In this document: positions 10,203 to 19,097 of the stretch, one piece after another
Layout: each line of letters opens with the position of its first letter
Numbering within the stretch: the first letter of the stretch is position 1
Assembly (NCBI GenBank): GCA_030167145.1
Contig: CP126532.1
Span: forward strand, 330,001-362,000
From: Ktedonobacterales bacterium
GTDB taxonomy: Bacteria; Chloroflexota; Ktedonobacteria; Ktedonobacterales; JADMIN01
Length of the DNA: 32,000 nucleotides
Reading direction: 5' to 3'
The notes under the pieces: generated by a model
What the model was told of the DNA's origin: nothing
Database searches by the model: none
The model's input: the letters and a program-made list of their open reading frames with translations, nothing else
Made by a program: the position numbers and the translations under genes

Positions 10203-10766
10203 ATGGCACCAACAGACGACACCAGAAACAGCCGTGAGTCACTGGAGCGCAGATATATGCATTGGAACGAGCTCGAAGCGCCTCTGATTGAGAGGAAGCG
10301 CAAGGAGCTTGGGCGGATGTTGCGGGCGTTCCGTGATCTGAAGGGATATACCCAGGAGGAGACTGCGCACAGTCTTGCCATCGCAGCGGAGGGCAGGTTT
10401 GGCGTGCAGCTGCTTGTGCCGAGTGAATACATTGGTGATCTTGAAGCGGGAAAGGTGAAGAAGGTCAGTCTTGATCTCATTCTCTGCCTTTCTGAGGCAT
10501 TAGGTGTGGATGGGAAGGGAACCGCAATGTTACTCGACGCTGGTGGGCATAATGGCACTGGATGGTGGCTTATCTCTCGTGCAGGGAATCCCGCAGTAGT
10601 CCGCGAGTGCGTGGAGAACCTAGTGTCCGGTCGTCAACCGATTACCGTGAAAGATCTGACGGAACAATTGGAGGTGTGGGATACAAAAGCAACGACCTAC
10701 CTGAGGGAGGCGATCAAGCAATTGCAGCTCGCTCTTGAAGCGATGGAGCAAGAGCGTAGCCCATAA
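10203..10766 (+). CDS. XRE-family helix-turn-helix transcriptional regulator
   Basis: HTH_3-like core LRAFRDLKGYTQEETAHSLAI...YIGDLEAGKVKKVSLDLILCLSEALG. The region is lower in GC than its surroundings. Confidence 0.8.
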   Translation: MAPTDDTRNSRESLERRYMHWNELEAPLIERKRKELGRMLRAFRDLKGYTQEETAHSLAIAAEGRFGVQLLVPSEYIGDLEAGKVKKVSLDLILCLSEALGVDGKGTAMLLDAGGHNGTGWWLISRAGNPAVVRECVENLVSGRQPITVKDLTEQLEVWDTKATTYLREAIKQLQLALEAMEQERSP

Positions 10767-11052
10767 TACCGAGACGCATCTGGTAAGCTGAGTAGCGCAC
10801 TACAGGAAATGTGCGCACACACACACACGTCAGTGGGATGCGCTCGCCGAGTGCGTCAGATAGCATGTGACTACACAAGGGAGTGTGGGCTTGAGCACCC
10901 TTTTCCGACATTGATCCACCGATACACTACAAGGGAGCAGACTTCAAATGCGTTCGACGACAACCCCTTCGTCCGAATCACGGTCTTCCCGGCGACCATC
11001 GCGGCACGCTCAGGAACAGGAACCGTGGGAACAATTGACATTTCATGGGGAT

Positions 11053-11700
11053 ATGGCAGAGGCGACTCGGCCTGATATCCTGGTAGCCGAGACACAGCAT
11101 CTGGTACAACCATGGACAGTCAAGGCTTTGATCGAGGTGTGTAAGCGGAAAGGCATTGTGTATCAAGAAACGGACGCATTCTCGACACTCAACGGCATCG
11201 TGGTGCAGTGTGGTTCGGCAGTGACCATTAAGGTTCGTAAGTCGCTGGCGGATCCCTGCAAAGTAGCGGTGATTGCTCATGAATTGGGGCATCTGGCACT
11301 TGGGCATACGCAATATCAGCGGACGAGACGGTGGGATCCCCGCTTGGGTGTGAACGTAGAACTGCAAGCCACAGGCACGACATTGGGCGCGACCGAGAAT
11401 GAGGCTACAGACCAAGAAGGAGGGCAAGATAGCGCGGAGACAGGTGACATGGGGCATCGGGAAGAAGTAGAGGCCGATGTATGGGCCGCATACGCACTGG
11501 TTCATCCCGAGGTATTTCAGCAGCATCTCAATGTGCTGCGGGCAGATGGCAATGATGACGAGACCGCGTGTCATGGTGCCGCAGCTAATGTCGCGCACGA
11601 TCTCCACCTTCCTTGGCATGTCATCGAGCGACGACTCTATTACGATGACTGGCAGTTTCCTGAGCCGCCGTACAAGTGGCTGCTCAGTGAGGGAATCTGA
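11053..11700 (+). CDS. ImmA/IrrE-family (COG2856) zinc metallopeptidase
   Basis: HEXXH motif (IAHELGHLALGH) and a downstream EVEADVWAAYALV motif. Start reassigned to MAEATRPD at 11053. Confidence 0.85.
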   Translation: MAEATRPDILVAETQHLVQPWTVKALIEVCKRKGIVYQETDAFSTLNGIVVQCGSAVTIKVRKSLADPCKVAVIAHELGHLALGHTQYQRTRRWDPRLGVNVELQATGTTLGATENEATDQEGGQDSAETGDMGHREEVEADVWAAYALVHPEVFQQHLNVLRADGNDDETACHGAAANVAHDLHLPWHVIERRLYYDDWQFPEPPYKWLLSEGI

Positions 11701-11896: not shown

Positions 11897-14884
11897 TTAG
11901 GGCTCACTGCCGAGACGACGAAGAGAATCTCGCACGCTCTCGGCCTCGGGTGATCCGACCTGCTCGAAGGTGCGCAGAGCCTCGCGATAGTGGGCAAGCG
12001 CGTTAGGGCGCTCGCCAATGTCAGTGTAGAGCCGTGCAAGGGATTGATGGCACAAGGCTATCTGATAGACATCACCCAGTCTTTGTGCAATCGCCAGACT
12101 TTGCTCAATCATTGCGCGTCCGCTGGAAACCTCACCTTGCTGAGCCGTGAAGATTCCAAGGTTAAGTAGCTCGCTCGCCTCGGCGGAAGGATCGCCCAAC
12201 TGCCGGGCCAGTGTCAGCGCCCGTTCGAAGCCTGCGTGTGCGTCCGATAGCCGACCGACCTGTGCGTCGAGTAACGCTATCTCATGCACTGCGGCTTGTT
12301 CGGCCCTGGGGTCGCCGAGTTGGCGGGCCAGCACCTGGGCACGATAGAAGCCAGCACGCGCCTCGGGCAGCCGCCTGGCATCGCTATCTAATACGGCGAG
12401 GCTATAGATCTCGGCCATTTCGGCAGCGGGGTCGCCCAGTTGCTGGGCGAGCGCCAGCGCCTGTTCGAAGCCTGCGCGCGCCTGTTCTACTTTGCCAGTG
12501 CGGGCATCAAGGGCCGCAAGGTTGTGGGGTTCTTGTTGTTCGGCGGCTGAATCTCCGAGGCGCCGAACAATGGTTAACGATTGCTCGTAGCCTGCACGGG
12601 CTTCGGCTACCAGACCTGCTTGCGCGTCCAGCACGGCGAGGCTATGCACCTCGGCGCGCTCTGCGGACGGGTCGCCCAGTTGCTGGGCCAGCGCCAGCGC
12701 CCGCACGAAGCCGTCGCGCGCTTCGGCAATGCGGCCTAATTGGCTATACGTCACTGAAAGCTGATGGATTGCCCATTGCTGCTCTTTTAGGTCATTGGCT
12801 TGGTGCGCTGCCTCGTCTGCCCAAGTGTACATCTGGACTTCTTCCGAACGGTGGCCTCGCACATCCCACGCTGTGCCTAGCGCATGCGCAAGCGCCAGCA
12901 CGTTGCGGTGGCGGGCGTGGTCGTGCGCCCAGGCGAGCGCGCCCATCAGGCCGAAGTTCTCGGCTTCGAGCGCGTTCATGCCGTCGTAGCCTGGGTGGTC
13001 TTCGGCGTACTCCAGCCAGTAGGCGACGATGGTGTCGCCAAGGCGGTCGGTGGTGGGGGCGGGGAGCTGGCCCAGGCGGGCGGCGGCGTATTCGCGCAGC
13101 AGCGGATGCAGACGCAGGCGCGGGCCGGTGGCGCTGGCGAGCGGCTCGACCAGGCGCAGGGTGACGAGGGCGGCGACGGCGGCTTCGGGGTTAGCATCAG
13201 CAGATGAGGTGGGTGGCTGGTTGGGCTGGTCGGGCTGATCTGATACATCAAGGGCGGCCTGGGCGAGGGCGTTGGCAGCGGCGCGGGGGAAACTGGGGCC
13301 GCTGATGAGCGCGAGACCGGCGAAGAGGCGCTGCTGGGCAGGGGTGAGCACGTCCCAGGAGCGGTCGAAGCGCGCGACGATGGCCTTGCGGGGGTTGCCT
13401 CGGAAGGCGGCGGCGTTGAAGCCGTCACGGCGATGCTGCGCGCGGATGTCGTGTAGCGAGAAGCCTTGCACCCCGGCATAGGCGGCGGTCAGCTCGATGG
13501 CGAGCGGCAGGCCGCCCAACTCTTCGACGATGGCGTCTATCTCTGGACGCTCCTCGGCGGTGGGGCGGGTGTTCTGGCTGTTCTGGGCGAGGATGCGGGC
13601 GAACAACTTGGCGGCGGGGGTCTCGGCCAGCGGCGTGAGGAAGAGTGGCGTGAGGCGGGTATCGGGGATGGCGTCGCGGGCGGTGAGCAGCAGGGCGACG
13701 TGGTCAGGGACGGCAAGGGCATCGAGCAGGGCGTCGGCGGGGAGCGCAGGCTCGACGTTATCGAGGGCGATGAGGGTCCGCGGGCGAGCGGCGAGCGCGG
13801 CGGTGAGGGCGACGCGGCGCTCTTCGGGGTCGGCCTCTTCGGCGATCTGGCGCAGTTGTAGTTCTTCGGCGACGCGCCGCCAGAGTTCAGCGAGGCCATC
13901 GGGTCCGGCGAGGTCTTCGCAGGAGATCCAGGCGAAGCCGCCGGGGAAGTCAGCGGCATGGTGTTCGGCGAGACGGGCGACGGCTTCGGCGGCGAGGGCG
14001 GTCTTGCCGACACCGGCGATACCCTCGATGGCGAAGACGCCGACGGGGGCATTGGCGGCGGTGAGCGCGGCGGCAAGGGTGTCTAGCTCGTGGTCGCGGC
14101 CCACGAGTCCGGCGGCGCGGGGCAGGCCGGAGCGTGCGGCGATGATGCTGGGGACGGCGGGCTGGAGATTGAGCAGGTAGCCGGCGATGCGGGTGCTGAC
14201 CTTACCGCCGAGGTCTTCGGGTGTGGTGAAGTAGTCGGGGGTGTGGAAGTTGGGATTGGCGAGGAGGGCGCGAAAGGCATGGAGTTGTGCGGTGTGTTCG
14301 CGGTCGCGCGTGGCAGAAGGAAACAAACGCTCATTGAGTTCGGTGGCGGGATCGGCGAGGAAGACGAAGATGGGTTTGCCCAGCCGCCGGGCTTCTTCGT
14401 ATTCCTGGTGGGTGATGGAGCGGGTCTCGCCTGGGGGAACGGTTGGGATGGAGCCGTAGCGCCAGGCGACGATAAGCACGACGTAATCGGCGGTGGCGAC
14501 CTCGTTGGTCGAAACGGTGGCGGCGTCACCGCCCGCGCTGAACTGGGACATATCCACCGCGTGCTGCTCGATGCGTTCGAGGCGGTCGTGGACGACCCGG
14601 CGGTGTTCGATGAGGTCTACATAGGTGGAACAGAGGAAGATGCGGTGAGTGAGGCCGGTGGACTGAGGGGAGACAGGCGCGAGTGCGGGCGCGATGGGGT
14701 CAGGTATGGGAGTAATGGTGGGAGTCGCGACACTAATCAGTCCCTGCACAATGAGTTGTTGCATTGCATCGGCAAAGTGACGCAGATCGTACGCTTTGAG
14801 AAATGCGTGGAGATCGGGATCGCGTTGCCACTGATCCTCAGTTGGGAAGGAAGGTCCGTGGTTCGAGTTGGCAGGTGGAGTCAC
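11897..14884 (-). CDS. STAND NTPase: N-terminal DUF4062-like domain, NB-ARC ATPase, C-terminal TPR array
   Basis: DUF4062-like block: IFLCSTYVDLIEHRRVV...YVVLIVAWRYGS...SITHQEYEEARRLGKPIFVFL. Walker A IEGIAGVGKT at 14000-14023 and Walker B LIALDNVE. NB-ARC motifs LLLTAR and GGLPLAIEL. About seven 40-aa TPR-like repeats. The GTG start overlaps the upstream stop as GTGA. Confidence 0.9.
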   Translation of the reverse strand: MTPPANSNHGPSFPTEDQWQRDPDLHAFLKAYDLRHFADAMQQLIVQGLISVATPTITPIPDPIAPALAPVSPQSTGLTHRIFLCSTYVDLIEHRRVVHDRLERIEQHAVDMSQFSAGGDAATVSTNEVATADYVVLIVAWRYGSIPTVPPGETRSITHQEYEEARRLGKPIFVFLADPATELNERLFPSATRDREHTAQLHAFRALLANPNFHTPDYFTTPEDLGGKVSTRIAGYLLNLQPAVPSIIAARSGLPRAAGLVGRDHELDTLAAALTAANAPVGVFAIEGIAGVGKTALAAEAVARLAEHHAADFPGGFAWISCEDLAGPDGLAELWRRVAEELQLRQIAEEADPEERRVALTAALAARPRTLIALDNVEPALPADALLDALAVPDHVALLLTARDAIPDTRLTPLFLTPLAETPAAKLFARILAQNSQNTRPTAEERPEIDAIVEELGGLPLAIELTAAYAGVQGFSLHDIRAQHRRDGFNAAAFRGNPRKAIVARFDRSWDVLTPAQQRLFAGLALISGPSFPRAAANALAQAALDVSDQPDQPNQPPTSSADANPEAAVAALVTLRLVEPLASATGPRLRLHPLLREYAAARLGQLPAPTTDRLGDTIVAYWLEYAEDHPGYDGMNALEAENFGLMGALAWAHDHARHRNVLALAHALGTAWDVRGHRSEEVQMYTWADEAAHQANDLKEQQWAIHQLSVTYSQLGRIAEARDGFVRALALAQQLGDPSAERAEVHSLAVLDAQAGLVAEARAGYEQSLTIVRRLGDSAAEQQEPHNLAALDARTGKVEQARAGFEQALALAQQLGDPAAEMAEIYSLAVLDSDARRLPEARAGFYRAQVLARQLGDPRAEQAAVHEIALLDAQVGRLSDAHAGFERALTLARQLGDPSAEASELLNLGIFTAQQGEVSSGRAMIEQSLAIAQRLGDVYQIALCHQSLARLYTDIGERPNALAHYREALRTFEQVGSPEAESVRDSLRRLGSEP
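11950..12790. repeat. approx. 120-bp (40-aa) periodic TPR-coding repeats within the STAND gene
   Basis: Repeated protein unit A.AGFE.AL.LA.QLGDP.AE......LA.LDA..G.... Confidence 0.8.
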
Positions 14885-16560
14885 GGTGTGTCATTCTCCT
14901 CGATCGTAGTCTGAGACGATGGTGGCTGATCATTTGTGTCGATGCCGAGGGTGCCATATATCTGGATAAGCACGGCAGCAAGGGCGGTGGCGCGTTCGTT
15001 TGGATCTGCTGTGTCCATGGCGCGCTCGAAGCGATCAACGATATGGAGGTAGAAGCGAGGCCAGCGAACTTGCAGCAGCATGAGCAGACTCAGCGCGATG
15101 CGGTCGATGTCAGTTTCGAGCGGCGCATCTATGGATTCAGTGGCTACTACGACAGAATTTAAGAAGCGCTTCACTTCGCGTGGGTTGCTTCTCGTACCCT
15201 GGCGAATGAGTCCCATGTAGCCGTTTGGAATACGCTGGAAAGCGCGTGCGTCGAAGAAGGACGTCAAACCAGCATCGTCGAGAGACTTGGTGACAAATTT
15301 TTGAAACTCAGCGTCAGTAGGCGTGGGGAGGTGAAAATTGAGTTGCACGAGTTTCTTGAGGTATGCAGTGCCGTCGGGCACAGTTAGTGGAAACTCTCTC
15401 TGGAGAGCGTTTGCTACCTGCCCTGGATCAAAGCCCAAGACAAAGATGCATCCAGGAACGTCGAAGAAGAGCTTAATAGTTTCCAATGTTTGGAGGATAT
15501 CGTCTGGCAGGCAACGGTCGAGGTCATCCACGAATATCACCAACAGTGGCCGCCGGTTCTTAAGGGAGCTCCAATAGTGGAGGGTTCTGGTGAAGTCGTG
15601 CTCGAATTCATTGCGATAGTGTGCACGTCGGTCCATGAGGTCCACGACGCGCCCACCTGGGTTACCAGAAGGGGACACCATGGCTGCGAGTTCGAACAGT
15701 AGCCCTGGTATGTTGCCGCGGAGTTGATGGAGATACCATCGGATGGCCCGGCGAGGCATCGCATCAAAGACTGCACTGAGCAACCCGTTGCGAACATCGT
15801 TTCCTTTGTATTTCCAGGCGTTGAAATAGACAGTAAAGCACGCCCACGGCTCACCCCGTTGTTTGGGAAGATGGGCGCGCTGATTTTGGGGATTGCACAA
15901 ACGCTGGGCAATCATGCGCATGGCAGTAGTTTTGCCCATGCCCCATTTGGCCTCAATAGACAAGGCCAGGGGTGAATTGTCCGCCGAGGTAAGGATCAGT
16001 CGGGCGAGCACATCAACAAAGTCATGGTAACCAAGTGGGTCGAATCTCTTGTCCTTGATGTCCTTCGCGGTCTCGGTAAATGGAGCGTCGCCACTGAGAC
16101 TAGGCAGGGATGTTCGCAGTTGCTTCTTCTCCGAAAGCCTATTCTGCTCGCGTGCCCGATCCAGACGCGCCCACGTATTCAAGCGCCAGAGGATGATAGC
16201 GAAGAGCACGAGTAAGGCAAGGGTCCAAGGGTAGTGCTCGAAAGCGATTGCGAGCGGGGCGAGCAGAAGAATTTGCTTTGTGCGTGCGTCAAGGCTGAGC
16301 ACACGATCAGTATCAGAGACGATCTGAGGGAACACGTTGATGGCAGATGCGGCAGCAATGAGAATCAGACTGGTAAACAATGCAGCGAGGTAGAGTTGGA
16401 TAAAAATGAGCGAGAGGCGTAAGATGGCCCGCAAGACTTTCAGTATGCCTGTGCGCGGATACAGGCCATTGCGCGAGTCAGGTAGCAGCGGGACTTTCTC
16501 GAATTTGGGGGTGTAGGTCATGTGAATTGGCTTCGGATTGTGAGATGCAGGCCGATCCAT
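14881..16560 (-). CDS. KAP-family P-loop NTPase with an N-terminal transmembrane region
   Basis: Walker A SIEAKWGMGKTT at 15925-15945. KAP-type Walker B LLVIFVDDLDRCLP. Three to four hydrophobic helices within the first ~125 aa. Confidence 0.9.
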   Translation of the reverse strand: MDRPASHNPKPIHMTYTPKFEKVPLLPDSRNGLYPRTGILKVLRAILRLSLIFIQLYLAALFTSLILIAAASAINVFPQIVSDTDRVLSLDARTKQILLLAPLAIAFEHYPWTLALLVLFAIILWRLNTWARLDRAREQNRLSEKKQLRTSLPSLSGDAPFTETAKDIKDKRFDPLGYHDFVDVLARLILTSADNSPLALSIEAKWGMGKTTAMRMIAQRLCNPQNQRAHLPKQRGEPWACFTVYFNAWKYKGNDVRNGLLSAVFDAMPRRAIRWYLHQLRGNIPGLLFELAAMVSPSGNPGGRVVDLMDRRAHYRNEFEHDFTRTLHYWSSLKNRRPLLVIFVDDLDRCLPDDILQTLETIKLFFDVPGCIFVLGFDPGQVANALQREFPLTVPDGTAYLKKLVQLNFHLPTPTDAEFQKFVTKSLDDAGLTSFFDARAFQRIPNGYMGLIRQGTRSNPREVKRFLNSVVVATESIDAPLETDIDRIALSLLMLLQVRWPRFYLHIVDRFERAMDTADPNERATALAAVLIQIYGTLGIDTNDQPPSSQTTIEENDTP

Positions 16561-16764: not shown

Positions 16765-17628
16765 TTATCCAGCCGGGCTGGAAGATGCATGAGCGATGCG
16801 GCTGAGCCGCCGCAGCAGGAGGTGGCTCATGCTGGCATAAATGAGCGCTTCGCTGGATTCGAGGTGATACTCGAAGTCCTTGGCCAGCCGCCGGAACCCG
16901 CCCCACCCGCCGAAGGTGCGCTCGACAATCCAGCGGTGTGGCTGCACCTGGAAGACCTGCGGTGGCTGCTCTTGCAAGCGCTTGACGATCTCGACGGTCC
17001 AGCCCTGCTGCGCGCGCAGCTCATCGGCAAAGGTGCCGCTATAGGCGGCATCGGCCCACAGATGGGTCAGGCGCGGCAGCTCCGGGCCGAACAGGTCCAA
17101 CGCCGCCAGCACCAAGCGTCCGCCTGCGGGATCGCTCACGTTGGCCGCTGAGACGACCACTTTGAGGACAAAGCCTTGCGTATCCACCAGCAGATGCCAT
17201 TTGCGCCCCATCACCTGTTTGTGCGCGTCGTAGCCGCGCGGCCCCCGTTTTGGCTGGTCTTGACCGACTGGCTGTCCAGAATCGCGGCGCTGGGCGTTGG
17301 CTCACGGCCCAACTGGCGCCGGGTCTGTTCGCGTAGCGCCGTATGGATCTGCTCCCACAGCCCAGCGTTGCGCCACTGTCGAAAGTAATAGTAGACGGTT
17401 TGCCACGGCGGCAGATCGGCGGCAGATCGGCGGCAGATCATGCGGCAGCGCGCGCCATTGGCTGCTGGTCCGCACGATATACAACACCCCGTTCACGATT
17501 TCGCGCCGACTCCAGCGCGCCGGGCGTCCACCCCGCTTGACCGCTGGCACCAACGGCTCAAGCAGCTGCCACTCGGTATCGCTCAAGTCGCTGGGATACC
17601 CTTTGCGCTCTCCGATCTGTCTGTCCAT
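16765..17628 (-). pseudogene. IS5-family transposase (DUF4096 N-terminus + DDE), spread over three frames
   Basis: The fragments 17628-17302, 17441-17211 and 17214-16765 together read as one IS5-type protein. The first break is caused by an 11-bp unit present three times. The second break is a -1 shift at CCAAAAC/GGGGG (17241-17253) and could be programmed. Confidence 0.8.
17407..17439. repeat. perfect 11-bp tandem triplication, GGCGGCAGATC x3
   Basis: Read directly. A single copy restores HDLPPWQTVYYYFRQWR in one frame. Confidence 0.95.
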
Positions 17629-17726
17629 GTCTCCAGTCTACCACTTTCAAAACGGCCTCTAATATTACAGTTGCAGTTAGTCCGGCGATGTGACGAGACT
17701 GTCCTGGAGCCGAAAGGAGTCAGGAC

Positions 17727-19097
17727 ATGGGCGAACACGGCAGCAGCGCGGTGACGCAGGCGGAGGTGGCAAGCTGGGCAGCGGGCTTGGACGAGGTGCA
17801 GCAGCGGATCGGCCCGCGGTTCGCGCGAGCAGAACAGCGCCAGCGGGTCCGGGCATATTTGGAAGGGCTGCTGAGTCCGGTCGAGCGGAAGAATGGCTGG
17901 CAATTAGCCGAGCATGCTGGAGAGATGACGCCGTACGGCATGCAGCGGCTCTTAGCCGGGGCGAAATGGGATGCGGATGCCGTCCGCGACGACCTGCGAG
18001 CCTACGTCGTGGAGCAGTTGGGCGATCCGAAAGCCATCCTGGTCATCGATGAGACGGGCTTTCTCAAACAAGGCACGCACTCGGTCGGGGTCAAGCGCCA
18101 GTACAGCGGCACTGCGGGCCGCATCGAGAACTGCCAAACGAGAACTGCCAAATCGGCGTCTTCCTGACCTACGCCAGCCCGGCCGGGCATGTGCTACTAG
18201 ACCGCGCACTGTATCTGCCCCAGGAATGGGCCCAGGATCGAGAGCGGCGCTGGGCAGCGGGCGTGCCCGAGGAGGCGGCCTTCGCCACCAAGCCCGAGTT
18301 GGCCCGGCAGATGCTGGAATGGACCCTCGCAGCGGGTGTCCCAGCGGCATGGGTGACCGGCGACAGCATCTACGGCGGCGACCGCCGACTGCGGATCTGG
18401 CTGGAGCAGCAGGGGCAGCCCTTCGTGCTGGGCGTGACGCGCCAGGAGCCGCTGTGGGCAGTGGTGGATGGCCGCTGGGGCCAGCTGCGGGCGGATGAGA
18501 TCGCCACCCACGTGCCGGCGGGAGCATGGCGACGCCTCTCGGCTGGCGACGGTGCGAAAGGACCGCGACTCTACGACTGGGCGCGCGTGCCGCTGGCGCG
18601 GCTGCAGCTGAGCGCGGAAGAGCGCCGCTGGGAGCACTGGTTGCTGGTGCGTCGCAGCGTGAGCGATCCGACCGAGTTGGCGTACTATGTAGTCTTCGCG
18701 CCGCGCGGCACCACCCTGCGCGAGCTGGTGCAGGTGGCTGGGCAACGCTGGCGCATCGAGCAGAGCTTCGAGCTGGCCAAGGGCGAGGTGGGCCTGGACC
18801 ACTACGAGGTGCGCCGTTGGGACGGCTGGTATCGGCACATGACGCTGGCGATGTTCGCCCTGGCGTACCTAGCGGTCCTGCGGGCACAGGCCCCCGATGG
18901 AAAGGGGGCACATGGACCTGAGTGTTGACCTCTTGCCGTTGACGGTGCCCGAAATCCGCCGACTGCTGTACGGCCTCGCTGCGGCTGCCGATCCGCTGGC
19001 GACCGCCGTCCTTGCCTGGTCACACTGGCGGCGGCGACACCAAGCAACAGCCAGACGCTGCCACTACAAGCGCCGCCTGGCGCTCATCTCTACGTAA
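17727..19097 (+). pseudogene. IS701-family DDE transposase with two frameshifts
   Basis: AAAGGAG RBS. Fragments 17727-18167, 18191-18928 and 18897-19097. Break 1 is a 14-bp duplication. Break 2 is a G5 run at 18904-18908. The repaired sequence reads ..[26 protein letters not shown].. and ..PDGKGHMDLSVDLLPLTVPEIRRLL... Confidence 0.8.
18125..18152. repeat. perfect 14-bp tandem duplication, CGAGAACTGCCAAA x2
   Basis: Read directly: copies at 18125-18138 and 18139-18152. Confidence 0.95.

Follow-up and report, generated by a model that had tools for sequence, protein, structure and literature searches.

A membrane KAP NTPase and an NLR-like STAND protein form a conserved, sometimes fused unit with a chimeric copy in a Ktedonobacterales bacterium: a candidate two-component conflict system

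In a 32,000-nucleotide stretch of DNA from a Ktedonobacterales bacterium (positions 330,001 to 362,000 of CP126532.1, a 5.07-Mb JGI contig; hereafter the window), two intact, collinear minus-strand open reading frames (ORFs) encode a predicted membrane-anchored NTPase of the KAP family (gene 1, 559 amino acids, starting with ATG) and an NLR-like protein of the STAND class (gene 2, 995 amino acids, starting with GTG). Comparison with relatives indicates that the two genes very probably form one functional unit: at every locus that could be judged, a KAP of this clade lies directly upstream of, or is fused to, a STAND protein with an NB-ARC domain and tetratricopeptide repeats (TPRs), and the STAND carries a short sequence, which we term the N-motif, that tracks the linkage. 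The window STAND is chimeric, with the N-motif of the linked clade joined to a body derived from a different, stand-alone family. On balance, we favour the interpretation that the two genes constitute a two-component NLR-like conflict system, probably acting in anti-phage abortive infection, with the KAP as membrane executor.

The relatives of the window KAP fall into a well-delimited clade. In a first search, of a 5.8-billion-protein index, clusters P0001–P0004 scored 494–762 bits and the next match 205 bits. An exhaustive HMMER scan covering 1.84 billion representative proteins added P0212–P0218, which match from the N-terminal membrane module onwards; lower matches are confined to the KAP domain. 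These two sets make up the clade (about 10 clusters), and its two taxonomically labelled members, the window and L008, are both Ktedonobacterales. All nine informative members, that is, those with enough flanking sequence (three further members are on contigs too short to judge), show the arrangement seen in the window. Six are adjacent collinear pairs with the KAP ahead of the STAND (the window, L003, L004, L171, L173 and L175), and three are in-frame fusions (L008, from a Ktedonobacterales metagenome-assembled genome, P0216 and the independent P0215) in which Pfam recognizes KAP_NTPase, NB-ARC and TPR domains within one chain. The domain order is constant, running from the transmembrane (TM) module through the KAP, the N-motif and the NB-ARC to the TPRs, and the window pair has all of these elements. 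Since the synteny is conserved, and the genes have become fused, at a KAP identity of 32–41%, we regard the linkage as strong evidence for one functional unit. A reading of the window made from its sequence alone (the sequence-only reading) had proposed the two genes as a functional pair not recognised as a named system; cross-genome adjacency bears out the first part of that proposal, and the second also holds, as no named equivalent of the module was found in PADLOC, NCBIfam or the literature searched.

The association is not a general property of KAP proteins. None of 159 other KAP loci, taken from GTDB genomes and JGI metagenomes, adjoins an NB-ARC gene, so the linkage is specific to this clade, and a general KAP–STAND association was rejected. 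The clade is also set apart by the placement of its hydrophobic segments. Of 159 KAP homologues that possess both Walker motifs, 38 carry a hydrophobic segment inserted between these and 110 carry none at all; a placement restricted to the N-terminus occurs in this clade alone, where the N-terminal membrane module is common to every member.

Gene 1 belongs to the KAP family by both profile and motifs. The Pfam KAP_NTPase model (PF07693; family of Aravind et al. 2004) covers residues 180–474 (E = 2.5e-36; 125.9 bits against a cutoff of 20), and the WGMGKTT and DDLDRC motifs are present, the latter falling in the Walker B region LLVIFVDDLDRC. As the sequence-only reading had noted, the hydrophobic segments (about 38–76 and 92–131) all precede Walker A. 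Kyte-Doolittle hydropathy peaks at residues 51–69 (2.39) and 105–131 (1.74), the AlphaFold2 (AF2) model (predicted local distance difference test, pLDDT, 81.8) places helices at 35–76, 92–109 and 111–151 next to an intact P-loop domain, and neither hydropathy nor AF2 reveals a hydrophobic segment between Walker A and Walker B. The protein therefore lacks the canonical KAP trait of TM helices inside the NTPase domain and has hydrophobic helices at 38–131 instead; because such an insertion is not universal among KAPs, its family membership stands. From the hydropathy and the AF2 helices we predict that the N-terminal segments form a TM hairpin. A PDB sequence search with the window KAP returned no match, and the fold search retrieved generic ORC/Cdc6/AAA+ ATPases and the ring-forming RADAR ATPase RdrA, with a template modelling score of ~0.35.

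Several KAP proteins have known or proposed roles in defence. KAP NTPases with linked C-terminal modules (EF_KAP and relatives) are antiphage and need their Walker B motif (PMC13552941, PLoS Biol 2026), and PifA, the T7-exclusion protein of the F plasmid, which has no TM helices (PMC13001434), depolarises the membrane and makes it leaky (according to the summary in PMC13001434). The window KAP shares the KAP_NTPase domain and intact Walker motifs with the EF_KAP relatives, PifA, QatA and PDC-S20, and can be likened to the EF_KAP-type proteins in its predicted membrane association and in being followed by a linked module, which those proteins need for defence, as well as to PifA, which acts at the membrane. 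It differs from other KAPs in that its hydrophobic helices are N-terminal only, with none within the P-loop domain, and from the EF_KAP type in that a second signalling NTPase, namely a whole NLR-like STAND, forms the linked module and is supplied either by fusion or by the next gene. Identity with the named systems was rejected for QatA (NF041923, 117 bits against a cutoff of 600, with no QatBCD genes, QueC-like or TatD-like, among the scanned neighbours) and for PifA (100 bits with the PADLOC model, the best stretch covering positions 183–346 of a 720-position profile). The PADLOC PDC-S20 model gives at best 116 bits in two stretches, the better of which covers 170–358 of 464 positions, and the KAP here is not stand-alone.

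Elsewhere in the family, KAP domains are joined to other modules. Single-chain KAP-TPR fusions of ~1170–1200 amino acids occur in Acidobacteriota (Pyrinomonadaceae; L018, L027, L052, L067, L138 and L164), and in these the KAP itself appears to play a STAND-like role. Many KAP homologues (within P0006–P0163) are fused to FGE-sulfatase/C-type-lectin-like domains (PF03781), TIR domains, pentapeptide repeats, caspases, kinases or HEAT repeats, a pattern that fits a role of KAPs as STAND-like cores in the diversified sensors of multicellular bacteria (PMC10907252).

Gene 2 has the composition of an NLR-like protein, and its sensor/switch/effector layout had been read correctly from the sequence. 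Pfam detects DUF4062 (8e-15, residues 81–165), NB-ARC (7e-13, residues 265–467), TPR_12 (3.6e-20) and TPR_MalT; the scores for NB-ARC (48.8 bits; cutoff 23.5) and TPR_12 (72 bits) place the protein among the NB-ARC-type STANDs. Its NB-ARC contains the Walker A GIAGVGKT, the Walker B LIALDNVE and the LLLTAR and GLPLA motifs, and the repeats, of which there are approximately seven to eight, show a 40-residue periodicity with 35% self-identity. The Walker motifs are complete in both NTPases. Comparison with Avs1–5 gave no match to an Avs model, the sole PADLOC match of the STAND being to a generic TPR model; we therefore rejected assignment to these types, and the protein is Avs-like in architecture.

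The start of gene 2 deserves comment, since the JGI gene caller places it at M41, 117 nt past the KAP stop codon. This start was rejected, as the conserved N-motif would be lost. Ahead of the GTG the STAND frame is open for just two codons, M41 is preceded by no further ATG, GTG or TTG, and residues ~22–54 are conserved in the STAND partners of homologous KAPs; the GTG, which overlaps the KAP stop in the sequence GTGA and is preceded by a Shine-Dalgarno-like GAGGAG, is consequently the only start that encodes the N-motif. The overlap on which the sequence-only reading had built is thus real. The translational coupling and fixed stoichiometry drawn from it do not extend to the family, because the gaps between KAP and STAND are about 36–181 nt in other loci. 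A promoter and terminator scan of the operon yielded nothing that exceeds shuffled sequences.

The feature that sets the KAP-linked STANDs apart, overlooked in the sequence-only reading, is the N-motif, an element of ~35 residues with the rough consensus [DE]x[DE]L[QRH]xF[LI]..[FY]...[IL]..[LIV][IV]..G[LM]P.V. It is present in all nine linked STANDs, at the N-terminus in the pairs and between the KAP and the NB-ARC in the fusions, and absent from the 47 close STAND paralogues scanned with its hidden Markov model (HMM). A model built from L003, L004 and L008, without the window, matches residues ~22–54 of the window STAND with E = 7.8e-6 among 4,684 ORFs, the next match having a value of 0.17. 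Judged from these sequence comparisons, the N-motif is the feature that tracks KAP linkage. AF2 predicts helices at residues 16–21, 23–31 and 34–46, at low confidence, and a Pro-rich linker separates the motif from the rest of the protein.

The layout of the pair resembles that of effector/NLR pairs of filamentous bacteria, Ktedonobacter among them, in which the NLR has a short N-terminal motif and the genes frequently overlap by 4 bp (10.1101/2020.01.06.895854), and the coupling principle of effector-associated domains (EADs) applies to such a layout (PMC7159879). These likenesses raise the question of whether the N-motif could be one half of a homotypic pair, of either the bacterial amyloid signalling sequence (BASS) or the EAD kind, with a second copy in the KAP. 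The chance of this is next to negligible. Alignments of KAP C-termini or whole KAPs with STAND N-termini in three pairs stayed within those of shuffled sequences (fraction at or above the observed score 0.43–0.81), a nine-sequence N-motif HMM gave at most 3.7 bits on 11 KAP moieties, and no second copy was found in the six-frame ORFs of the window. At the sequence level, this rules out both a BASS amyloid pair, there being no shared motif and the N-motif being predicted helical rather than beta-rich, and an EAD homotypic pair (Kaur et al. 2020), there being no second motif copy in the KAP. If the N-motif is the coupling element, the coupling would thus be heterotypic.

Beyond the N-motif, the window STAND departs from its linked counterparts. 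DUF4062, which had been taken as part of the pair, occurs in the window copy only; the other eight linked STANDs run from the N-motif through a linker directly into the NB-ARC, and on this comparison the domain is a lineage-specific addition rather than part of the conserved KAP-STAND system. The closest relatives of the window STAND (48–61% identity) are stand-alone Ktedonobacterales NB-ARC/TPR paralogues, variously equipped with DUF4062, TIR or an N-terminal hydrophobic module of their own, and with neither the N-motif nor a KAP neighbour. In the NB-ARC, the window protein is 51–59% identical to these paralogues and 28–36% identical to the KAP-linked STANDs. A neighbour-joining tree of this domain recovers the other eight linked STANDs as monophyletic in 200 of 200 bootstraps and groups the window with 17 paralogues equally consistently (200/200), and never with the linked clade. 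The GC content at third codon positions (GC3) of the STAND gene tells the same story: it is 0.52 over codons 1–60, like that of the KAP gene, jumps to about 0.8 at codon ~60, remains at 0.73–0.93 over codons 61–660 and falls to 0.53–0.70 in the TPRs; a paralogue gene and the L003 and L004 partners are compositionally uniform. A GC contrast between the two genes as a sign of separate origins was accordingly refined, the step lying inside the STAND gene and not at the gene boundary. Taken together, the identities, the tree and the GC3 step show that the window STAND is chimeric, and by these sequence measures it is the N-motif of the clade joined to a paralogue-derived DUF4062-NB-ARC(-TPR) body, the probable recombination junction lying within the linker. 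The 3' edge of the high-GC3 block (12905–14704), near codon 660, may mark a second junction, although the TPRs, too, are nearer to those of the paralogues than to those of the KAP-linked partners.

Such an origin opens the possibility that the window genes are now independent, the STAND acting as an autonomous NLR-like protein with its own effector and the KAP as a separate single-gene defence of the PDC-S20 or EF_KAP kind, or as a relic. The STAND body is close to paralogues that have no KAP neighbour, a protein of similar architecture works as a single protein (10.64898/2026.09.04.749371), and the KAP gives the partial PADLOC matches to PDC-S20, PifA and QatA described above. Against this, the recombination preserved both the N-motif and the reading frame, even yielding an overlap of 4 nt with the KAP stop; neither ORF is disrupted, and the catalytic motifs of both are complete; and the ancestral linkage holds in nine of nine cases, fusions included. 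We consider independence a rather remote prospect. That the N-motif was kept in frame, overlapping the KAP stop, through a swap of the body behind it argues instead that the motif is the determinant of KAP coupling, as far as sequence can indicate.

A Ktedonobacterales family of NB-ARC/TPR proteins (P0165, P0166, P0169–P0175, P0177, P0178, P0181, P0183–P0185, P0188, P0189 and P0194; e.g., L168:8001–11063) begins with a module of its own, ~150–185 amino acids long and containing two hydrophobic segments and a conserved loop of the form P[DN]HW..[GA]V[QK][SN]Q, after which DUF4062 is present or absent; these proteins look like membrane-anchored NLR-like proteins. They resemble bacterial STANDs with N-terminal TM effectors in carrying a hydrophobic module in cis. 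Homology of this module to the KAP N-terminal module was rejected, as hhalign aligns 13 columns, and the two are analogous at most. Outside the window, P0205 is a paralogue in which DUF4062 is fused directly to TPRs without an NB-ARC; its DUF4062 is 66% identical to that of the window, making it a possible relative of the donor. P0167 (JGI 3300047160), a DUF4062-NB-ARC protein of 612 amino acids, adjoins genes for Cas1, SSB and HTH_17, with no other Cas family among the ~14 called genes shown, which suggests a mobile element.

The domain acquired with the body has a predicted enzymatic function. The sequence-only reading had put the pair forward as uncharacterised, which for its DUF4062-STAND-TPR part has been overtaken by three 2026 preprints in which DUF4062, renamed NIR, is a TIR-like NADase effector of Avs and NLR-like proteins. 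The NADase of KpSwz (Swarozyc) needs E97 (Osinski et al., 10.64898/2026.05.01.722283), and PsAvs2, with the order NIR-STAND-TPR, needs E108, senses phage terminase and depletes NAD+ (Le Mouellic et al., 10.64898/2026.09.04.749371). Both confer protection at low multiplicity of infection and growth arrest or culture collapse at high multiplicity, as in abortive infection (10.64898/2026.05.01.722283; 10.64898/2026.09.04.749371). NIR recurs in other NLR-like proteins (10.64898/2026.09.04.749371), and that paper does not use the terms KAP, NB-ARC or transmembrane.

In the window protein, PF13271 scores 55.2 bits (cutoff 24.7) over residues 81–165, and AF2 models residues 81–240 with a pLDDT of 87–97 as a TIR-like/NDT-like flavodoxin-type fold, for which the top Foldseek matches are the RPS4 TIR (2.5e-5) and then SARM1, TIR-STING, BcmB, NDT and DNPH1. 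E161 aligns with the position mutated in the KpSwz E97A chain 10wc_A, in a phmmer match that is weak (E = 0.59). Among 23 homologues it is at least 90% conserved within the motif S.T..EY..A, in which S156, T158, Y162 and A165 are invariant. Judging from fold and sequence, the window copy probably depletes NAD+ on activation. It shares a TIR-like NIR in which the catalytic Glu is conserved with both PsAvs2 and the Swarozyc DUF4062, and with PsAvs2 also the N-terminal place of this domain, the central STAND NTPase, the TPRs at the C-terminus and the predicted output of NAD+ depletion. In contrast to PsAvs2, the N-motif stands ahead of the NIR and a membrane KAP gene is obligately linked; the NTPase is of a Ktedonobacterales NB-ARC family, and the conserved KAP-STAND arrangement elsewhere has no NIR.

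These elements suggest how the unit might work. The KAP would be a cytoplasmic P-loop NTPase held at the membrane by its N-terminal two-helix hairpin; in the STAND, the TPR array would be the sensor and the NB-ARC a nucleotide-driven oligomerisation switch. A ligand on the TPRs would drive oligomerisation of the NB-ARC, and the N-motif would link the activated STAND heterotypically to the membrane KAP, which would occupy the effector position in an order retained by the natural fusions. The KAP would then probably act at the membrane, through PifA-like permeabilisation or NTP-dependent assembly. In the window copy, the ancestral STAND body was replaced by recombination with a local paralogue carrying NIR, and with E161 intact its activation probably also, or mainly, depletes NAD+.

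In this scheme the signal would run from the STAND to the KAP. That the KAP is the effector, a membrane-acting partner downstream of the STAND, is favoured by the lack of an enzymatic effector in eight of the nine linked STANDs and by the position of the KAP on the effector side in the fusions, and we propose it tentatively. The reverse arrangement, in which the KAP acts upstream as a membrane sensor or regulator and, through its NTPase cycle, permits or holds back the linked STAND, leaving the STAND domains to execute, corresponds to the model of a KAP that regulates its fused C-terminal module and is a serious rival, if an unlikely one. In the KAP defence proteins that have been tested, a TM-KAP precedes a C-terminal module on which defence depends (PMC13552941), that layout recurs in the three fusions (L008, P0215 and P0216) with a whole NLR as the C-terminal module, and the window STAND has its own predicted enzymatic effector in the NIR. 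However, without a recognizable effector in the eight other STANDs, the KAP is the sole nearby candidate for an executor; moreover, the N-terminal position in STAND proteins is normally the effector or adaptor side, and the TPR array already supplies a sensor. Returning to the KAP as executor, the fullest version of the scheme, a two-NTPase immune module in which an NLR-like sensor is plugged via a ~35-residue heterotypic adaptor into a membrane KAP executor and whole bodies are exchangeable, is one that we put forward with considerable doubt.

The unit is likely to be a defence or abortive-infection system. The neighbourhood contributes little to this assignment. On one side of the pair are genes derived from insertion sequences (ISs; 16765–18928), and on the other a pair of helix-turn-helix (HTH) and ImmA-like genes together with prophage-like genes (a terminase and a C39-like peptidase); a TnpB fragment is also present. 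The sequence-only reading had described a context resembling a defence island, and of this the mobile-element genes, the terminase and the TnpB fragment are confirmed; the XRE/ImmA pair remains below threshold, and no known defence system was detected among the ten neighbours. The island argument is therefore weak, and the case for defence rests on the domain content and the published function of the parts.

A role outside antiviral defence has points in its favour. The module could serve programmed cell death, the recognition of kin or non-self, or signalling during development in the filamentous, multicellular Ktedonobacteria, roles that have been suggested for numerous NLR-like proteins of fungi and of multicellular bacteria. 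The window, L008 and the family of window STAND paralogues are all Ktedonobacterales, NLR-like expansions track the multicellular habit (10.1101/2020.01.06.895854; PMC7159879), housekeeping genes flank the homologous pairs in L171 and L177, and no known defence system adjoins the window pair. We nonetheless think it improbable to a high degree, because every bacterial NIR, KAP or STAND-TPR protein characterised so far is antiphage (10.64898/2026.09.04.749371; 10.64898/2026.05.01.722283; PMC13552941), the window copy is flanked by IS elements and by a prophage remnant, and a patchy, rare distribution with swapping of bodies is typical of defence genes.

The two contextual points just given, the housekeeping neighbours of L171 and L177 and the lack of a known defence system beside the window pair, also weigh against the two-component conflict system that we favour, and they are joined by several others. 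The module is rare, and the comparison draws on a small sample of about 10 clusters, many of which come from short metagenomic contigs. The TPR array of P0215 is frameshifted, the 4-nt overlap is not conserved, the TM status of the KAP N-terminal segments is a prediction from hydropathy and AF2 helices alone, and the N-motif is modelled with a pLDDT of 56–70. Finally, this particular copy might act autonomously and its KAP be redundant, given that the body of the window STAND stems from paralogues for which no KAP is needed. As regards P0215 (L177:1720–6196), the fusion has an out-of-frame tail and a 149-amino-acid TPR ORF overlaps its 3' end; the frameshift may be real or an assembly artefact.

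Table 1 Coordinates of the KAP-STAND pair, its domains and motifs, and two neighbouring genes in the window.
Feature	Position	Strand	Basis or remark
Gene 1, KAP-family P-loop NTPase, predicted membrane-anchored, 559 aa	14881..16560	-	ATG ORF
Two long hydrophobic helices, predicted TM hairpin before the P-loop, KAP residues 38–131	16168..16449	-	Hydropathy and AF2
KAP Walker A WGMGKTT, residues 206–212	15925..15945	-	G207, G209 and K210 invariant in clade
KAP Walker B region LLVIFVDDLDRC, residues 339–350	15511..15546	-	V341 to C350 invariant in clade
Gene 2, chimeric NLR-like STAND, 995 aa (N-motif, linker, DUF4062/NIR, NB-ARC, TPR)	11897..14884	-	GTG ORF
GTGA, STAND start GTG overlapping KAP stop TGA	14881..14884	-	Shine-Dalgarno-like GAGGAG 11 nt upstream
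N-motif, short, helical, adaptor-like, residues 16–54	14723..14839	-	HMM and AF2
Pro-rich disordered linker with probable recombination junction, residues 55–80	14645..14722	-	pLDDT below 50; 27% Pro
DUF4062/NIR TIR-like domain, predicted NADase effector, residues 81–240	14165..14644	-	Pfam, AF2, Foldseek
Codon of predicted catalytic Glu E161	14402-14404	-	Alignment
NB-ARC NTPase switch and ARC/winged-helix region, residues 260–640	12965..14107	-	GIAGVGKT, LIALDNVE, LLLTAR, GLPLA
TPR sensor array, residues 649–995	11900..12940	-	~7–8 units of 40 aa
HTH gene	10203-10766	+	Weak match: HTH_31 24.5 bits, just below cutoff; PADLOC CapH 1e-3
M78/ImmA-like peptidase gene	10948-11700	+	Weak match: just below Pfam threshold; PADLOC CapP 5e-4

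Among the neighbours, the HTH/ImmA pair is not an obvious regulator of the operon: its matches to CapH and CapP are weak, and it converges on the STAND gene from the 3' side. The IS-derived ORFs at 16765–17441 (minus strand) and 17727–18928 (plus strand) comprise DUF4096 (76 amino acids), DDE_Tnp_1 (148 amino acids) and a split DDE_5 transposase. The DUF4096 and DDE_Tnp_1 ORFs overlap, a two-ORF layout typical of the frameshifted transposases of the IS5 group. Three dead IS elements had been counted in the area; the DDE_5 transposase, split into two ORFs, indeed looks disrupted, but the DUF4096/DDE_Tnp_1 element may not be dead.

The pair also invites comparison with other two-gene NLR systems. 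Like BASS pairs (Dyrka et al. 2020) and EAD systems (Kaur et al., eLife 2020), it consists of two genes of multicellular bacteria that are collinear and in some cases overlap; the NB-ARC/TPR protein has a short N-terminal element in place of an enzymatic effector, and a putatively membrane-acting partner is encoded upstream. It departs from them in that the KAP holds no second copy of the motif, the motif is predicted helical, and the partner is a large NTPase, whereas theirs is a small effector of the Bell or enzymatic type. Membrane-inserting resistosomes and the sensor/helper NLR pairs of plants offer no more than an analogy, in which a sensor NTPase is likewise coupled to a second NTPase or executor at the membrane; the executor is not homologous, and the KAP is not a STAND.

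Taken separately, the two proteins are of known kinds, KAP NTPases and STAND/NLR-like proteins both being recognised classes of immune NTPase: the STAND is of the NIR-NLR-like kind, and the KAP belongs to a family that includes antiphage proteins. What is new is the conserved, sometimes fused combination of a TM-KAP with an N-motif-NB-ARC/TPR protein, together with the swapping of bodies around the adaptor. A conserved KAP-NLR unit provides a handle on how KAPs act and predicts both an interface between the N-motif and the KAP and an output at the level of the membrane. The window copy, which joins a putative membrane executor with a predicted NAD+-depleting NIR domain, is in this respect a natural experiment, since the body was swapped while the adaptor was kept, pointing to the adaptor as the determinant of coupling. 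If this is correct, the adaptor would make the system modular, such that whole sensor-switch(-effector) bodies can be swapped while coupling to the KAP persists, and the window copy would exemplify such a swap. The pair also extends what is known of how NLR repertoires expand and recombine in filamentous bacteria.

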